Positions 1,028 through 61,858 of a stretch of DNA of 64,000 bases are shown here, in pieces. Every line of letters begins with the position of its first letter. Within the stretch, counting starts at the first letter, position 1. The position numbers and the translations under genes were made by a program. The DNA is from Trueperaceae bacterium (GTDB lineage Bacteria; Deinococcota; Deinococci; Deinococcales; Trueperaceae). The stretch is taken from the NCBI GenBank assembly GCA_965215565.1, contig CBDCDZ010000004.1, forward strand, positions 4,096,001 through 4,160,000, read 5' to 3'. The notes beneath the pieces are model-generated. The model did no database searches, was not told the DNA's origin, and saw nothing but the letters and a program-made list of their open reading frames with translations.

Positions 1028-1139
1028 TAGCGATTATCAGAAGTACTGAGCTTGAATCACGCAGGTATCATCACAATCAAGTGCGTGCTAGACGATAGTG
1101 TATCTCGTGAGATTGGCTCAAACCAGATGATACCTGCTA
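1028..1139 (+). repeat. Repeat family A (MITE-like), copy 1
   Basis: Ends in ACCAGATGATACCTGCTA; internal 12-bp inverted repeat GCAGGTATCATC (1061-1072) / GATGATACCTGC (1126-1137). Confidence 0.85.
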
Positions 1140-1546: not shown

Positions 1547-1645
1547 TAGCAGGTATCATCTGGTCAAAAACGCGCTTAGTCTGATGGTGTATTGCTCAGC
1601 TTGAACGTCGATGGATGATATCTGCGCTGCACAAGCCTATTGCTT
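1547..1645 (-). repeat. Repeat family A, copy 2 (degenerate), upstream of rpsO
   Basis: TAGCAGGTATCATCTGGTC at 1547; inner inverted arm GATGATATCTGC near 1614-1625. Confidence 0.7.
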
Positions 1646-2702: not shown

Positions 2703-2976
2703 TAGCAGTTCTCATTGCTTGGACGAAGTCATGCGAAGTAACACTTCTCCGCAGATTTCACAGCTTCGCTGTAACGGAACTTCATCCCTGAAAGTGCGTG
2801 CTAAGTACTCCAGCCTAAATAATCTAAACTATTTTGGAAAGATTTCTCCCTGTAAGATGCGTTTCGTCAACCTCTTTAGTTTAGGTTATTTCCACGCACC
2901 TACTTAGGCAATGTTCTTTTTAGTGAGAGTGTTACTTCGTATAGCTTCGCTCAAGCTGACCAAATGATACCTGCTA
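2703..2976 (+). repeat. Repeat family A, copy 3, carrying a nested insertion
   Basis: Runs TAGCAGTTC...ACCAAATGATACCTGCTA; aligns to the copy at 38633 apart from insertions. Confidence 0.85.
2804..2904. mobile_element. 101-bp MITE-like element nested in repeat A, with TA duplication
   Basis: TA at 2802-2803 and 2905-2906 where the 38633 copy has a single TA; AGTA/TACT termini; subterminal inverted repeats 2817-2831 and 2877-2891 (14/15 match). Confidence 0.65.
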
Positions 2977-4816: not shown

Positions 4817-5017
4817 GTGGCGCATCTCGAGCCCGCCGACGCAAGTCCCTCATCCGTTTTTACACCTCTTGCAAAAGGGCTTGCAGCGCTCTATCAACTC
4901 TGACCTTTAGCAATTGCCACGTTTTAAGGTCTGTCTTCTGCTCATAGAATCTGACGCCCGACTGAGAACCCCGTTCTGCTCGTAACGGGGTCTTTCAACC
5001 CGCTCGGCAAGTTGATA

Positions 5018-5174
5018 TAGCAGGTATCATCTGGTCAGAGACACTCTCACTTTGTGAAACGCTGTTTCCTGCGGAAAACTTCGTAATTAGCACGCACTTT
5101 GAGGGATGAAATTCCGCTAGCTCTGCGAGCTGAGACCTGCGTTCAACTGTCTCAGTGTGTCGTGGAACTGCTTA
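5018..5174 (-). repeat. Repeat family A, copy 4
   Basis: Nearly identical, as reverse complement, to the copy at 25443-25577, plus an insert of about 20 nt. Confidence 0.9.
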
Positions 5175-18716: not shown

Positions 18717-18895
18717 TCAGTACCTTCAAAACACGCTGAAATAGACCCGCGCAGCTATCATTTTCGGGAGTGCGCTCCAAAGTAGAGTTTTGTAAAGTAA
18801 GCGCGTTCGTGACTAGATAAACGCGCGAAGCTTCCGATTACGCAGTGTTCCGAAGGAAAAGAACCTGCTACTCATTGACCAGATGATACCTGCTA
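18717..18895 (+). repeat. Repeat family A, copy 5 (degenerate, with a doubled right end)
   Basis: Diverged body, then ACCTGCTA (18863-18870) and TGACCAGATGATACCTGCTA (18876-18895). Confidence 0.7.
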
Positions 18896-25443: not shown

Positions 25444-25577
25444 AGCAGTTCCACGACACACTGAGGCAGTTGAACGCAGGTCTCAGCTCGCAGAGCTAGC
25501 GGAATTTCATCCCTTAAAGTGCGTGCTAAACAGCGTTTTACAAAGTGAGAGTGTCTCTGACCAGATGATACCTGCTA
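25443..25577 (+). repeat. Repeat family A, copy 6
   Basis: TAGCAGTTCCAC...ACCAGATGATACCTGCTA. Confidence 0.9.
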
Positions 25578-36994: not shown

Positions 36995-38095
36995 ATGAAA
37001 CGTCGTGATTTTCTAAAAAAAGCGGGTGTCGTCGCTGCTAGCACCTCACTCTCGCCCCTCATGTTCGCGAACGCGCAATCGTCATCGTTCAGCTTCGAGA
37101 TGGTCACGTCGTGGCCTACCTCGCTCGATACGATTTACGGGGGCGCAACCAATACGGCGGCATATTTAGAGGAGTTGACCGACGGTGACGTCACCGTCGA
37201 GGTGTACCCGGCGGGCGCACAGGTCGGTGGCTTAGAGGTCTACGACGCGGTCTCGTCGGGCGCATTCGTGATGGGTCACACGGCGTCGTACTACTACGTC
37301 GGTAAGGACCCCACCCACGCCTTTTTTACCGCCGTGCCGTTCGGTCTCAACGCGCAGCAGATGAACGCCTGGTTCTATCAGGGCGGCGCGCTGGACCTGT
37401 TCAACGAACTCAACGCCAGAGACGGGCTCATCGCGTTCCCGGCGGGTAATACGGGCGTGCAGATGGGCGGCTGGTTCAATCAAGAGATCAACACGCCCGC
37501 TGACTTGCAAGGCTTGACGATGCGCATCCCCGGCTTGGGCGGTCAGGTCATGACCCGCGCGGGCGCGAACGTGCAGGTCATCCCTGGTGGCGAAATCTTC
37601 CTAGCGCTCGACACAGGCGTGATTGACGCCGCCGAGTGGATTGGACCCTACGACGATGAGATTTTAGGGCTTAACACCGCTGCGCAGTTCTACTACGCTC
37701 CCGGCTGGCACGAGCCCGGTCCGTCGCTCGCCACCTATATCAACCTGAGCGAGTACGAGAGCTTACCCGCCGACATTCAACAAGCGATTCAGAAAGCCTC
37801 GGCGCGCGCCAACTTGCAGATGCTCGCCGATTACGACGCGAAGAATGGTCCAGCGCTCAACCGCTTAGTCGAGGCGGGCGCACAGCTTCGCGACTTCCCG
37901 GACGAGGTCTTAGTATCTCTGGAAGACGCCATGAACGCCATCCACGAGGAGACCGCCGCCAGCAACGACTTCTACGGACAGGTCTACCAGAACTTCTTGG
38001 GCTTCCGCGACGGCATCCGTGACTGGCACCGGATCAGCGAGTATGCCTACCAGAACTACGTCTACCGCAACGCGGAGGGTAGCAGCGAAGGCTAA
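36995..38095 (+). CDS. TRAP transporter substrate-binding protein (DctP/TakP-like) with Tat signal
   Basis: MKRRDFLKK, VTSWP, GNTGVQMGGWF and MRIPGLGG motifs. Confidence 0.9.
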   Translation: MKRRDFLKKAGVVAASTSLSPLMFANAQSSSFSFEMVTSWPTSLDTIYGGATNTAAYLEELTDGDVTVEVYPAGAQVGGLEVYDAVSSGAFVMGHTASYYYVGKDPTHAFFTAVPFGLNAQQMNAWFYQGGALDLFNELNARDGLIAFPAGNTGVQMGGWFNQEINTPADLQGLTMRIPGLGGQVMTRAGANVQVIPGGEIFLALDTGVIDAAEWIGPYDDEILGLNTAAQFYYAPGWHEPGPSLATYINLSEYESLPADIQQAIQKASARANLQMLADYDAKNGPALNRLVEAGAQLRDFPDEVLVSLEDAMNAIHEETAASNDFYGQVYQNFLGFRDGIRDWHRISEYAYQNYVYRNAEGSSEG

Positions 38096-38169
38096 ACGAA
38101 AGTCTATAGTAGGCAGGCTCTCTCTAAGGTTCGGGAGAGCTTGTCTAATTTGGATGGAGGCCAACTTCT

Positions 38170-38280
38170 AAAGCAATTAACATAAGTACTGATTGGAATA
38201 GCGCAAGTATCATTCTCAAATGTGCGTGCTACACGGTGTTCTACATCGTGAGAGCGTCTCAAACCAAATGATACTTGCTA
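38170..38280 (+). repeat. Repeat family A, copy 7 (A-variant arms)
   Basis: GCAAGTATCATT (38203-38214) / AATGATACTTGC (38267-38278). Confidence 0.8.
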
Positions 38281-38351
38281 TAGTACTTGAACGCCTCCAA
38301 ACCCTACGCAAACGAACCGCTTTCTCTTCGCGTATGGGCTAGACTAGCATT

Positions 38352-38624
38352 ATGAAAAAAGAGATCAAGCTCGAGGTAGATAAAGAGACCGCCTTAGGAC
38401 GTTACGCCAACGTCGCGATCATCGCCCACACAAAAGACGAATTTATTCTCGACTTCGCGCTCGCCTATCCTGGACAGTCGCCCACGGTGAATTCGCGCAT
38501 CATCACGAGCCCGCAGCACGCCAAAGCGCTCTTGCGGAGCTTAGAGGACAACGTACGTAAATTCGAGGCGCGTCACGGCGCGATTGCGGAGCCCGCGAAG
38601 CGTATAGGCGGCGAGCAAAATTAG
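38352..38624 (+). CDS. DUF3467 family protein
   Basis: GRYANVAIIAH, EFILDF, SRII and SPQHAKAL motifs. Confidence 0.85.
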   Translation: MKKEIKLEVDKETALGRYANVAIIAHTKDEFILDFALAYPGQSPTVNSRIITSPQHAKALLRSLEDNVRKFEARHGAIAEPAKRIGGEQN

Positions 38625-38632
38625 ATACTAGA

Positions 38633-38785
38633 TAGCAGTTCCACTTACTGTTGCTTGAGTGCAACTATGCGAAGCAACACTTTTCCACAGATATCATCCC
38701 CGAAAGTGTGTGCTAGGCGATGTTCTCTTTAGTAAGAGCGTTGCTTCGCATGGCTTCGCCCAAGCTGACCAGATGATACCTGCTA
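38633..38785 (+). repeat. Repeat family A, copy 8
   Basis: TAGCAGTTCCAC...GCTGACCAGATGATACCTGCTA. Confidence 0.88.
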
Positions 38786-39051
38786 TAGAGATAGCAGGAT
38801 GAAGGGGTTCATCCTGTTTCATGTGGTCTCGGGGAGAGGCTCTGCGGATTCCTAAGTTGTGTCCACGAAGAGTGCTGTTGAGGGGATATTAGAGGAGCCG
38901 ATAACGAACCTCTTCTGTCCGCCGCCTTTTTACTCCTGTATTTCTTCAAAACCGCATAAGCGCTAAAAAGTGACGCGAGATTCAGATGCCAGTCACTTTC
39001 CGCTGTTGTTCGGCTTACCCACATCCCCATCTAAGCGAGCTTTAATGAAGT

Positions 39052-39678
39052 ATGTCTGATGTGGTCGTCTACTTCGATTATCTCTGTCCCTTTGCTTGGC
39101 GCGGCGCGGAAGTCGCGCACGTCGTTGAGCGCGAACTCGGTCTCAGCTTCGAGTGGCGGCATTTTAGCCTCTATCAGAGCAACTACAGCAACGATCATGG
39201 TGGTGGCAACGGCTGGCAGCTTTGGAACGACCGCATCGAACCGGAGAGTGACAACGGCAGCAAAGGGCTACTCCCTTTTTTAGCGTCTTGTGCAGCGCGT
39301 CGGCAAGGCCCGGAGCTACATGCCCGCTTCCGCATGGCGCTGATGCGAGCGCGTTACCGTGAGCATAAACCTTATACGCTCACGACGCTTAAAGAGGTAG
39401 CTGGCGCGGTAGGATTACACGTTCCTAAGTTCGAAAGTGACCTCTCTGACCCGGAGTGCCGCACCACCTTAGCGCACGAACACCACCGTGCTGTGGCGCT
39501 AGATGTTTTCGGCACGCCGACTTTTTGTTTTCCGAACGGTCACACGTCGTATTTTCGCATCAACGCGCTACCTCGCAGTGACGAAGAGGCGGTTGACCTC
39601 TTTCAGAGTTACTGGCAGATGTTAGAACGCTATCCCTATTTAGAGACCATTAAGCGCCCGCGCGTCAAAGGGAATTAG
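39052..39678 (+). CDS. DsbA/FrnE-like thioredoxin-fold protein
   Basis: YFDYLCPFAW and VFGTPT motifs. Confidence 0.85.
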   Translation: MSDVVVYFDYLCPFAWRGAEVAHVVERELGLSFEWRHFSLYQSNYSNDHGGGNGWQLWNDRIEPESDNGSKGLLPFLASCAARRQGPELHARFRMALMRARYREHKPYTLTTLKEVAGAVGLHVPKFESDLSDPECRTTLAHEHHRAVALDVFGTPTFCFPNGHTSYFRINALPRSDEEAVDLFQSYWQMLERYPYLETIKRPRVKGN

Positions 39679-39788
39679 GCGCGCTTAAATTTTAGCTGCG
39701 CCGCTTCGAGGATTTGGAGCGGCGTTTTTCGGAGAGGCTCGAGCCCTCTAGTCCTGATTTTTGTAGCAGGTATCCGTATATTAAGAGA

Positions 39789-39920
39789 AGCGAGGTGATG
39801 CCCAGCAAGTATCAGCTTTAGGGCTAACAGATGAACTGCACACCTCGCTCACTAAGCTACACGGAGCTTGCCTGATACTAAGACGCTTAGTAGCCTCATA
39901 GACGGATAAGCAGCTACCGT
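39789..39920 (+). ncRNA. Predicted IS110 bridge RNA with target-binding and donor-binding loops
   Basis: Stem AGCGAGGTG/CACCTCGCT encloses AGCAAGTATC and CAGATGA (match the target); stem ACGGAGCT/AGCTACCGT encloses ATACTAAG and ATAGACGGA (match the donor junction). Confidence 0.8.
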
Positions 39921-39943
39921 GAGCAGCAACCTAAGGAGGTTGT

Positions 39944-40882
39944 ATGGTCATTATAGGGGTTGATCCACATCCGCAGAGCCATACCGCAGCAGCGTTAGAT
40001 AAACAGGGCAAGGTATTAGGTCACTGCACCGTTACGAATACGGCTGAGGGCTTGGCAACTTTGGAGCACTGGATAAAGCGCTATGACGTTCAGCGGTGCG
40101 CTATTGAAGGGGCGAATAACCCCTTTGCTCGGAGGTTGAGTCAAGCGTTGCTCGGGCAGGACCATAAGGTTGTGGACATTAGTCCGAGTCTGACGAGTCA
40201 GTACCGCAGCAAAAGAGGACGCAAGAAGAGTGATGAGGTAGACGCTGAAAACGTAGCTCGGGCTGCTTTGGCTAATCCTGAGCTGACTACGTTTGCACCT
40301 CGGCAAGCGGTTGAAGACCTCAAACATCTGACCCGCACCCGAGAAGCGCTAGCTAAACAGCTTACAGCGCACAAGCTGAGCTTAGCGAGCCTTGAGCTAG
40401 AGGTGGCTCGCCAAGCCGTCGAAGCCGTTATTGCAGTGCTTAAAGAACAACTCAAGACGCTCGAGCAGGCGATGAAAGCCCTCGTTGACGAACTGATGCC
40501 TGAACTCTTAGAGGTCTTTGGCGTCGGCGTCGTTCACGCCGCCACGCTACTTGCTGAAGCAGGTGACATCCGACGCTTTCGTTCACAACACGCCTTTGCC
40601 ATGTATTCAGGTTGTGCGCCTGTCGAGCGCTCTTCTGGTGGTCAGAAGAGAAGGCAACTCAACATCGGCGGCAACCGTCGGCTCAACCGCACCTTTCACA
40701 TGATTGCCCAAGTCAGACTGCGCCACAGCGAACCGACAAGAGCCTATCTCGACAAGAAACAGCAGCAAGGCAAGACCCGCCGGGCTGCTCTAAGAAGTCT
40801 CAAAACCTATCTCGCAAGAGAACTCTTTCGTTTCATGCTGCAAGTCACTCAGCAGCACCCACAGAGGTGGAAGGGGGCTTGA
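39944..40882 (+). CDS. IS110 family DEDD recombinase/transposase (312 aa)
   Basis: IIGVDPH, CAIEG and KSDEVDA (DEDD RuvC-like); C-terminal GCAPVERSSG and GGNRRLN; AAGGAGG RBS. Confidence 0.95.
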   Translation: MVIIGVDPHPQSHTAAALDKQGKVLGHCTVTNTAEGLATLEHWIKRYDVQRCAIEGANNPFARRLSQALLGQDHKVVDISPSLTSQYRSKRGRKKSDEVDAENVARAALANPELTTFAPRQAVEDLKHLTRTREALAKQLTAHKLSLASLELEVARQAVEAVIAVLKEQLKTLEQAMKALVDELMPELLEVFGVGVVHAATLLAEAGDIRRFRSQHAFAMYSGCAPVERSSGGQKRRQLNIGGNRRLNRTFHMIAQVRLRHSEPTRAYLDKKQQQGKTRRAALRSLKTYLARELFRFMLQVTQQHPQRWKGA

Positions 40883-41054
40883 CAACTCTATACTAAGTTC
40901 ATCTGGTTTGAGACACTCTCACTCTAAAAAGCAGCGTTTAGGACGCACATTGTGAGATGATACCTGCGGCGTTCTGTCTCAGTATATTTTGGAACTGCTA
41001 TTGAAATTGCGTAACGGGAGCCGTGTTCAACACATCCTCCTAATGAATCAACGG

Positions 41055-41083
41055 TTGACACCTTCTATACTGCTCGGTATACT
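41055..41083 (+). promoter_or_regulatory. Sigma70 promoter with overlapping palindromic operator
   Basis: TTGACA-N17-TATACT, 7 nt before GTG 41091; TATACTGCTCGGTATA at 41066-41081. Confidence 0.75.
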
Positions 41084-41090
41084 CGTTGGT

Positions 41091-41678
41091 GTGATAGAGA
41101 CACCGACTACCCTAGAGCCGCGCTCGCGCCTCTTGTGCTGCGCGCTTCACCTCTTCGCTGAGCACGGCTACGACGCAGTTGGGGTGCAGCGCGTGGTCGA
41201 AGCGGCGGGCGTGACGAAGCCGACGCTCTATCATCACTTCGGGAACAAGCTGGGGCTCTTGGAGGCTCTTCTACAAACTCACTTCGACCCCCTCAACGAG
41301 AGACTGCAACGCGCCGCCGCCTATCACCGCGATTTACCGCAAACGCTAGAACAGTTCAGCAGTACCTATATAACGCTGTCACTCAACGAGCCGGACTTCT
41401 CCAGACTGCGCCTCACCCTCTGGTTCGCCCCGCCGGGCAGCGAAGCGTTTCGCGCGGTTGCGCCCTGGTTAGAACGTCAGGAGAAACTCGTCGCTGAGCT
41501 TTTTGAGCAGGCATCGCAAGACCACGGCAACATGCGCTCTCGGCAGCTTACGCTGGCCTCGAGCTTCTTAGGTACGCTCAACACTTACGTTGGCTTATCG
41601 CTCAACGGATACTTGAATCTAAATGATGAGACCCGCCACCAGATGTTGCGTCAATATATGTACGGCATCTTCTCGTGA
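41091..41678 (+). CDS. TetR/AcrR family regulator
   Basis: FAEHGYDAVGVQRVVEAAGVTKPTLYHHF helix-turn-helix. Confidence 0.9.
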   Translation: MIETPTTLEPRSRLLCCALHLFAEHGYDAVGVQRVVEAAGVTKPTLYHHFGNKLGLLEALLQTHFDPLNERLQRAAAYHRDLPQTLEQFSSTYITLSLNEPDFSRLRLTLWFAPPGSEAFRAVAPWLERQEKLVAELFEQASQDHGNMRSRQLTLASSFLGTLNTYVGLSLNGYLNLNDETRHQMLRQYMYGIFS

Positions 41679-41721
41679 CCTCTTACAGAATTCTATAGCA
41701 GATAAATTTTTTACCCCTATC

Positions 41722-41737
41722 TATACCGAAAGGTATA
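41722..41737. promoter_or_regulatory. Second putative TetR operator, upstream of the GH13 gene
   Basis: TATACCGAAAGGTATA has the same pattern as 41066-41081. Confidence 0.6.
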
Positions 41738-41763
41738 AACGTTCAAATCAAGGAGAAATGCGA

Positions 41764-43116
41764 ATGAATCAACCCTTTCAAGACGCAACCATCTATCACA
41801 TCTACCCACTAGGACTTTTAGGCGCACCGGAGCGCAACGACTTCGCCTCGCCCGCCGCGCCGCGCCTAAAAGAGCTTCACGACTGGCTCCCTCACCTGAA
41901 CGACTTGGGCGTCAACGCGCTCTATCTAGGTCCAGTATTTGAGTCGAGTGCGCACGGCTACGACACGGTGGATTACTTTCACGTGGATAGACGTTTAGGC
42001 AACAATGAGATGCTGCGAGATTTGGCGACGCATCTTCGCGACAATAACATCCGCCTTGTGCTAGACGCAGTCTTTAACCACGTTGGACGAGACTTTTGGG
42101 CGTTTAAGGATGTGTTAGGGAACGGCGAGACCTCTCCCTATAAAGATTGGTTCCACTTAGAGTTCGGCGGCTCGAGCCCCCTCGGAGACCCCTTCACCTA
42201 CGAAGGCTGGAGCGGCAACTACGACCTCGTGAAACTCAACCTCTCGAATCAAGAGGTCAGGGCGCACCTCATGAGCGCGGTGAAATCCTGGGTGCACGAC
42301 TTTGAGATCAGCGGGTTGCGTTTGGACGCAGCGGACGTGATGGACAAGGACTTCTTGCGTGAGCTTACGCGCTTTTGTAAGGACCTGAAGCCGGACTTCT
42401 GGCTCATGGGCGAGGTTGTTCACGGCGATTACAGCGAGTGGGTGGGTCCCGACATGTTGGATTCTGCGACGAACTACGAGCTTTACAAAGGACTGTGGTC
42501 GAGCCACGCCGATAAAAACTACTTCGAGTTGGCGCATTCGCTCAAGCGTCAGTTTGGCGAAGGCGGCGTTTATGCGGGGCTCGACCTCTACACCTTTGCG
42601 GATAACCATGATGTCAATAGGGTGGCGAGCAGCTTAACGGAAAGTGCACACCTCTATCCGCTCTATACGCTTCTCTTCACCGTCCCCGGCATTCCCTCTA
42701 TCTATGCGGGTAGCGAGTGGGGTATCTCAGGCGAGCGCACGAATACGAGCGACGAGGCGCTGAGACCGAGGCTCGAGCTACAAGAAGTCAAAGCCCACGC
42801 CCCTCATCCCGACCTCGCCGACCTCATCGCCAAGCTGAGCCGTTTGCGTCACGCTTCGTCTGCTTTACAAAGAGGTGGCTACCGAGAATTGCTAGTCGAA
42901 CATGAACAGTTGGCTTTTGTACGCGAAAGTGCTGAAGAAAAAATTGTCGTAGTAACCAACGCTTCCGAGGAAAAGGTCATGCTCGAGCTAAACCTACCCT
43001 TTTCAGCCGGAACTGCTGTTGATTTGTTGAATGACAACGAAACCTTCGAAGTGCAGGATGCTCAACTGTCTGTCAACGTTCACCCGAGGTGGGCTCGAGT
43101 CTTGAAACTTTCGTAG
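41764..43116 (+). CDS. GH13 alpha-amylase family (cyclomaltodextrinase-like)
   Basis: HGYDTVDY, DAVFNH, GLRLDAAD, GEV and FADNHD motifs. Confidence 0.92.
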   Translation: MNQPFQDATIYHIYPLGLLGAPERNDFASPAAPRLKELHDWLPHLNDLGVNALYLGPVFESSAHGYDTVDYFHVDRRLGNNEMLRDLATHLRDNNIRLVLDAVFNHVGRDFWAFKDVLGNGETSPYKDWFHLEFGGSSPLGDPFTYEGWSGNYDLVKLNLSNQEVRAHLMSAVKSWVHDFEISGLRLDAADVMDKDFLRELTRFCKDLKPDFWLMGEVVHGDYSEWVGPDMLDSATNYELYKGLWSSHADKNYFELAHSLKRQFGEGGVYAGLDLYTFADNHDVNRVASSLTESAHLYPLYTLLFTVPGIPSIYAGSEWGISGERTNTSDEALRPRLELQEVKAHAPHPDLADLIAKLSRLRHASSALQRGGYRELLVEHEQLAFVRESAEEKIVVVTNASEEKVMLELNLPFSAGTAVDLLNDNETFEVQDAQLSVNVHPRWARVLKLS

Positions 43117-61722: not shown

Positions 61723-61858
61723 TAGCACTTCCACAACATACTGAGACAGATGAGCGCAGATCTCTGTCCGTAAGGACTAGCGGGATTTCATCTCAGAATG
61801 TGCGTTCTAAACGATGTTCTCTACAGTGGGAGTGTCTCCAACCAGATGATACCTGCTA
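61723..61858 (+). repeat. Repeat family A, copy 10
   Basis: TAGCACTTCCAC...ACCAGATGATACCTGCTA. Confidence 0.85.

Follow-up and report, generated by a model that had tools for sequence, protein, structure and literature searches.

An IS110-group insertion sequence at one fixed position of a Trueperaceae MITE, probably placed there by the guides of a predicted bridge RNA

An insertion sequence lies inside a short repeat of the window, the whole stretch of 64,000 nucleotides analysed here, which belongs to a 4.39-Mb contig (C4) of the nearly complete genome G000. The question raised by this locus is whether the element reaches such a position regularly, and what directs it there. The element occupies positions 39775..40900 of the forward strand and measures 1126 bp, with one copy of the TC core counted in. 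TC is present at 39773-39774 and again at 40899-40900, and the insertion made no further duplication. Joining the flanks (39764-39774 and 40901-41000) gives 111 bp that are letter-identical to an empty repeat copy at C4:1601185-1601295, whose flanking duplication differs from that of the host copy. The first-pass annotation had stated that deletion of 39775-40900 restores a 111-bp repeat with a single TC, and the empty twin confirms it. Insertion at a short core without any other target duplication, as defined for the IS110 family, is thus what is found at this site.

The same arrangement recurs throughout the genome. Seven full copies of 1126 bp are present, six of them identical and one with a single change (0-1 differences). 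All seven lie in the same orientation between TAGCAGGTATC and ATCTGGTTTGAG, and in 7/7 both junctions are those of the window, AGCAGGTA(TC) followed by ATCTGG. The first-pass annotation had suggested this genome-wide mapping, and among the full copies no other flanks or boundaries were seen. A TBLASTN search of the genome returned 7 identical proteins of full length together with a decayed copy and a pseudogene with 56% identity. On the chromosome there are 11 occurrences of the left-end motif TATCCGTATATT, and AGCAGG precedes it in 11/11 cases (the 7 full copies and 4 stubs). The right-end 11-mer is also found 11 times and stands directly before ATCTGG in 9/11 (the 7 full copies, the decayed copy, and a stub at C4:695978); the remaining 2 do not precede ATCTGG and are adjoined by no other IS sequence. 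Six remnants (the 4 left stubs, the decayed copy, and the right-end stub) share the junction of the full copies. A search of a plasmid collection gave no match to the element.

The element is intact and carries an ORF for a 312-aa recombinase (39944..40882, forward strand), in which both PF01548 and PF02371 exceed the Pfam cut-offs. Of its catalytic residues, D7, E55, and D100 are invariant in an alignment of 74 sequences and D97 and S231 nearly so. S231 belongs to a G-P-x4-SSG motif and aligns with the serine of the IS621 ESG; the closest solved structures are IS621 and ISCro4. Membership of the IS110 family is clear from the protein sequence. The non-coding ends are 169 bp upstream and 18 bp downstream of the gene, and their only inverted symmetry is ATA/TAT around the donor. 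With its long upstream end and no long sub-terminal inverted repeats, the element is assignable to the IS110 group and not to IS1111, following the group criteria in the consulted parts of PMC11187229 and PMC11208160.

The nature of the host repeat can be read from its ends. In the window it begins, after a TTG duplication at 39761..39763, with a left part of 11 bp (39764..39774) that holds the terminal repeat TAGCAG, the left target, and the core TC (39773-39774). It resumes behind the element with a right part of 100 bp (40901..41000) that holds the right target ATCTGG, an inner arm at about 40955-40967 complementary to the left end, and the terminal repeat CTGCTA, before the second TTG at 41001..41003; all these features are given on the forward strand. 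The 3-bp duplication is a trait of the whole family. A search with at most 2 mismatches found 407 left ends, 292 of which could be paired with a right end; 108/292 have the basic length, and the others contain short inserted modules at recurring places. With the ends set at TAGCAG/CTGCTA, a 3-bp flank duplication is present in 155/292 copies, against a mean of 8.75 and a maximum of 23 in 500 shuffles. Among 21 copies with paralogous empty sites, the occupied site has 3 extra bases in 12, 2 in 5, and something else in 4. Because of these ends, the excess of 3-bp duplications, and the empty-site comparison, the repeat is recognisable as a true MITE: it is short, non-coding, and multicopy, with terminal inverted repeats and a target duplication. 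An IS630-type MITE with a TA duplication was rejected, since the 109-bp frame shows no excess (51 vs 57 shuffled) and the 111-bp frame with 3 bp does.

The repeat could instead be a non-autonomous derivative or footprint of this IS110, and five remnants in which a few IS-end bases are fused to repeat sequence would fit such an origin. However, the repeat has terminal repeats and 3-bp duplications of its own, and its ends have no sequence in common with those of the IS. Its end motif is present in 21/128 genomes of the family, compared with 8/128 for this IS clade. Such a derivation is therefore extremely improbable, and the repeat is treated here as an independent MITE. Its cognate transposase was not found among the DDE matches of its own genome, nor in 46 loci of five relatives. 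A 1652-bp stretch considered as a partner element (C4:1933083-1934734) turned out to be two complete MITEs around an IS630-type gene.

The MITE family shows further variation. Longer copies (153) contain hairpin-like modules of 17-80 bp, often nested, as at 38636-38787 and 5017-5173 of the window, and module positions recur at about 20, 44-48, 64-72, and 96 of the 109-bp frame. The end motif is also seen in short tandem arrays with a period of 22-32 bp (C4:1994337-1994450, and C1:417511-417620 of genome G066). Contig C4 contains several other multi-copy intergenic repeat families into which the MITE has inserted, as seen in the flanks of the entries e23, e37, e160, e185, and e213.

Only 17/292 target cores lie inside ORFs of at least 150 codons, though such ORFs make up 74% of the chromosome. 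The other 275 lie outside them, in agreement with the earlier suggestion that the repeat offers many intergenic safe sites. The accompanying claim that the element parasitises an abundant non-autonomous repeat also held, given the AGCAGG before every left-end motif and the terminal repeats and duplications of the host. The claim that the insertion destroys the end and hairpin arm of its host copy held in part. The target forms part of an arm in the main DNA stem predicted for the empty MITE, so the hairpin would be split by the IS while the MITE termini are kept. The end itself is intact: TAGCAG, CTGCTA, and TTG/TTG are all retained, and the IS sits 11 bp inside.

Other occupied MITEs are similar in this respect, and 6 of the 7 retain both ends (the duplication is perfect in 4, near-perfect in 1, and missing in 1), the seventh lacking a right end. 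Retained ends and perfect 3-bp duplications would also result if the IS had entered one MITE once and the copies had then spread as a MITE-plus-IS unit by the MITE's transposase, not by repeated guided insertion. Two pairs of copies, whose right flanks agree over 75 and about 50 bases, point the same way, as does the TTTGAG common to all occupied copies. However, identical IS copies sit in host MITE bodies that diverge widely in sequence and range from 111 to 197 bp. A contig of the public run X2 has the window site empty with the MITE in place, and in relatives the guides covary with unrelated targets. Spread as a unit is thus very unlikely. With the element at one fixed base of the MITE in 7/7 full copies, it was very probably placed by the guides of a predicted bridge RNA.

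The left end is predicted to encode this RNA (39790..39942), which would be of the IS621 type with two loops and with guides that spell target and donor. It consists of a target-binding loop (39790-39848), a donor-binding loop (about 39856-39926), and a 3' hairpin (39927-39942), all on the forward strand, as are the guides. The putative left target guide AGCAAGTATC (39804..39813) is identical to the left target AGCAGGTATC at 9/10 positions. At 39828..39836 the right target guide CAGATGA, the complement of TCATCTG, is found together with the handshake AC, the complement of donor GT. The left donor guide ATACTAAG (39875..39882) is identical to 40890-40897 in the right end, and 39900..39908 contains the right donor guide ACGGA (complement of TCCGT in the joined ends) and the handshake TA (complement of target TA). 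Each handshake directly follows its right guide and is complementary to the two bases ahead of the core in the opposite substrate. The left target guide has one mismatch to every target used, which is retained in relatives with 92% and 71% identity, and in the left donor guide the two positions nearest the core are unpaired.

Folding of the 169-bp left end is more favourable than that of 200 shuffled versions (z = -3.96); in this single-sequence fold parts of the guides are base-paired. A consensus of 8 related left ends has two stems, each with an internal loop and an inner hairpin, and changes on both sides are seen in 15/35 pairs. In this consensus 96.4% of cells are paired vs 22-39% for slid partners, a comparison in which the structure is favoured as it was derived from the same 8 sequences. 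Rfam gave no match over positions 38000-42000 of the window. The short right end (40879..40900, forward strand) contains a -35 hexamer TTGACA over the stop codon, the left donor, and the core TC, and the left end contains a -10-like hexamer TATATT (39777..39782, forward strand). On the computed circle junction the two hexamers (40879 and 39777) are 18 bp apart, forming a predicted junction promoter.

The 3' hairpin is conserved and covers the ribosome-binding site of the recombinase, where it would dampen translation. Related bridge RNAs at five loci (L040, L044, L066, L068, L070) have insertions of 40-70 bases in the inner stem of the donor loop with the guides kept.

These parts suggest a route of insertion modelled on IS621, in which a promoter forms across the circle junction (PMC11208160) and the handshake arrangement promotes strand exchange (PMC11208158; the mechanism is also covered in PMC13626964), according to the portions of these sources used here. 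The ends of the IS would join at TC to form a circle, which would bring TTGACA and TATATT together and switch on the bridge RNA. In the target, the bottom strand of AGCAGGTATC would then be bound by the left target guide, with its one mismatch, and the top strand TCATCTG by the right target guide, while the donor loop would pair with ATACTAAG and TCCGT. Neither handshake dinucleotide would be able to pair until the top strands have been exchanged, and this would help the insertion to run to completion. A separate DDE-type transposase would spread the MITE, and the IS would thereby receive a steady supply of intergenic targets.

If guides choose the site, guides and flanks should change together in relatives. 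A single-protein query of genome and metagenome contigs found no relatives, and an alignment-based search recovered 48 loci among the genome contigs and 5 among the metagenome contigs. In the covariation set of 82 loci, 75 matched the protein; 31 of these were dropped (low identity, cut 5' end, no donor guide) and 44 were parsed by a fixed pattern. Left guides match their own flank at 5.67/8 bases vs 2.86 for swapped pairs (24 dereplicated guide sets), and right guides at 3.36/4 vs 1.20 (14 dereplicated sets), with 0/20000 permutations as extreme in either case, values that are overstated as the relatives are kin and that include two mis-parsed rows. The first handshake base complements position 7 of the opposite substrate in 33/34 and 35/37 rows, with one more being a wobble; these rows are not dereplicated and hold few independent changes. 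Overall, guides covary with the flanking targets across relatives.

Individual relatives illustrate this. In one genome of the same genus (G002) a 92% identical element has the same guide and the same junction. A relative with 71% identity has unchanged target guides and target, and a small hairpin is added at its right junction. A relative with 75% identity, present in three copies in genome G071, has the guides CAGGTAGCATC and ACCAGA and occupies the second TC at the end of a related repeat, a site 3 bases deeper, so that guide and site are both shifted. In the 92% relative an 80-bp element with inverted ends (L002:1424-1503) interrupts the start of the recombinase gene.

Unoccupied targets are abundant. 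The first-pass annotation had listed nine in the window, and all nine were located. Seven are exact copies of the 16-mer: 1548..1563 and 5019..5034 on the forward strand, and 1123..1138, 18879..18894, 25561..25576, 38769..38784, and 61842..61857 on the reverse strand. Behind the site at 1123..1138 stands TTTGAG, as it does in every occupied full copy. Two are variants on the reverse strand, one with 1 mismatch (2960..2975) and one, AGCAAGTATCATTTGG, with 2 mismatches and belonging to a second MITE subfamily (38264..38279). These remain candidate targets, as no junction was found in copies of the AGCAAGTATCATTTG variant, a result that is not significant for its 52 empty copies (p = 0.22). A preference for subfamily AGCAGG over AGCAAG was accordingly not accepted (p = 0.22). 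With up to 3 mismatches the window contains 10 matches to the 16-mer, vs 0.26 expected and 0/100 shuffles reaching that number; the tenth, at 40953-40968, corresponds to the inner arm of the repeat itself. The genome-wide count proposed earlier gave 228 exact empty sites, and two other genomes of the genus have 73 and 86.

The occupied sites may not be a uniform sample of these. TTTGAG stands at the right junction in 8/8 full or decayed copies vs 70/228 empty sites (p = 1.1e-4; with the copies reduced to 6 lineages, p = 1.0e-3), in a test made after the pattern was seen and with another MITE position among the 99 scanned scoring alike. Guide matches do not explain this bias. It could arise if the recombinase also reads the MITE hairpin or flanking bases, as for ISPpu10 (10.64898/2026.03.19.712850, in the part consulted), which would add to the guide model without replacing it. 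Such reading would account for the tolerated guide mismatch and the subfamily bias, and it is compatible with the target being one arm's part of the long DNA stem predicted for the empty MITE. On the other hand, the bias is post hoc and equalled elsewhere in the MITE, the old right-junction scar at C4:695978 lies in a TCAAAA context, and natural target loops often have 0-2 mismatches in any case (PMC11208160, as far as its consulted part goes). Additional reading of this kind is possible but somewhat doubtful.

Some MITE copies have lost part of the target. In 24 copies a module of about 25 bp replaces the AT directly after the core, so that the right target is lost and the left kept, and 18 copies have a changed core; neither set contains an IS. 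Together with the shifted G071 relative, these copies could be taken to mean that IS110 lineages and the MITE are locked in a chase of guide versus target across Trueperaceae, in which one lineage reads the first TC, its sister slid three bases to the second, and MITEs became immune through the post-core hairpin module (24) or the changed core (18). This scenario is speculative and we consider it unlikely; MITE modules are also found at several places other than directly after the core. Examples of the post-core module are at C4:798898, 1230586, and 3911408.

The insertions appear to have different ages. The four left-end stubs are about 8-25 bp long and each is fused to repeat sequence. Two of them join at 5-7 bp common to the IS left end and a repeat module, so these are likely deletion scars of older insertions. 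Half-match recombination was rejected as the origin of the stubs since their inner joints are not at the TC core. C4:687472 and C4:695978 were also rejected as the two joints of one guided inversion, because the first of them, in common with the other scars, runs on into MITE sequence. Small deletions are numerous in the decayed copy (C4:3452560-3453350), where 68 bp of MITE sequence and, upstream, a further 27 bp are duplicated; mixed alleles at this site may have misled the assembly, which would make the copy an artefact. A lone 14-bp match to the joined donor junction is present in the chromosome at C4:2776231, by chance or as a pseudo-donor.

At least one insertion seems to be recent. Contigs assembled from two public runs with one sample code (X1 and X2), which may be the source of the assembly, were compared with the window. 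The first-pass annotation had proposed a search for the empty allele in related strains, and one was found in these runs: a contig of X2 is identical to the unique left flank for 473 bases and then continues at 40899, skipping 1126 bases, with a short side of only 20 letters. The flank contig of X1 ends at 39774. This fits an insertion present in part of the population. Among the joints shown for the X1 and X2 contigs there was no circle junction. The depth ratio of IS to flank is about 7 in X1 and about 10 in X2, values that are not copy numbers.

The mechanism and the habit, RNA-guided homing of IS110 elements into repeats and transposon ends, are already published for IS621, ISPpu9/10, and IS1111/QMITE2, and the earlier statement that IS621 targets REP sequences agrees with published work on the IS110 family. 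The following comparisons hold as far as the consulted parts of the cited sources go. Like Escherichia coli IS621 (PMC11208160, PMC11208158; PDB 8wt6), the element has a long left and a short right non-coding end, a predicted two-loop RNA with the left guide before the right, a 2-bp core, a predicted junction promoter, short ATA/TAT donor flanks, handshake dinucleotides, and insertion in an intergenic repeat. Unlike IS621, its core is TC (CT in IS621), its protein is only distantly related (E 2.9e-16), its right target guide is 7 nt, and its target is not a REP but a MITE end with its own target duplication. In Coxiella burnetii IS1111 lies 10-20 bp from the 5' end of QMITE2 in 20/21 copies (PMC5896051), a similar habit, though the IS1111 group has sub-terminal inverted repeats and the RNA in the right end. 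Pseudomonas putida ISPpu9 (PMC12288879) likewise has seven copies, which share one position close to where a palindromic intergenic repeat begins, and ISPpu10 shares the mismatch-tolerant left guide and a target stem-loop. Both differ in a REP target, an AG or CT core, and a function shown by experiment, whereas the present element is known from its sequence. IS4321/IS5075 in Tn21 terminal repeats and IS1383 in IS1384 inverted repeats are also IS110-family elements at the end of another transposon, but their targets are autonomous transposons and IS4321/IS5075 belong to the IS1111 group.

No description of this element or the MITE was found in the literature searched, which omits most subscription journals and ISfinder. 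The supplements of PMC11208160 contain no MITE or Deinococcus entry as far as searched, and bioRxiv supplements could include the element. The locus adds a compact (312 aa) and apparently recently active bridge recombinase from a Deinococcota family, with a TC core and a fully readable set of predicted guides. Its genome amounts to a ready-made specificity experiment, with about 230 matching, 52 single-wobble, and 24 half sites and 12 junction events, to which the G071 relative adds a naturally shifted guide register.

A second IS110 in the same genome (L121, C4:420857-421994) is the 56% identical pseudogene, with one internal stop, and is inserted in an IS630-like element about 13 bp from the end. 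An empty end of that IS630-like element is present at C4:1277156; the left guide of L121 resembles this end and its right guide matches poorly.
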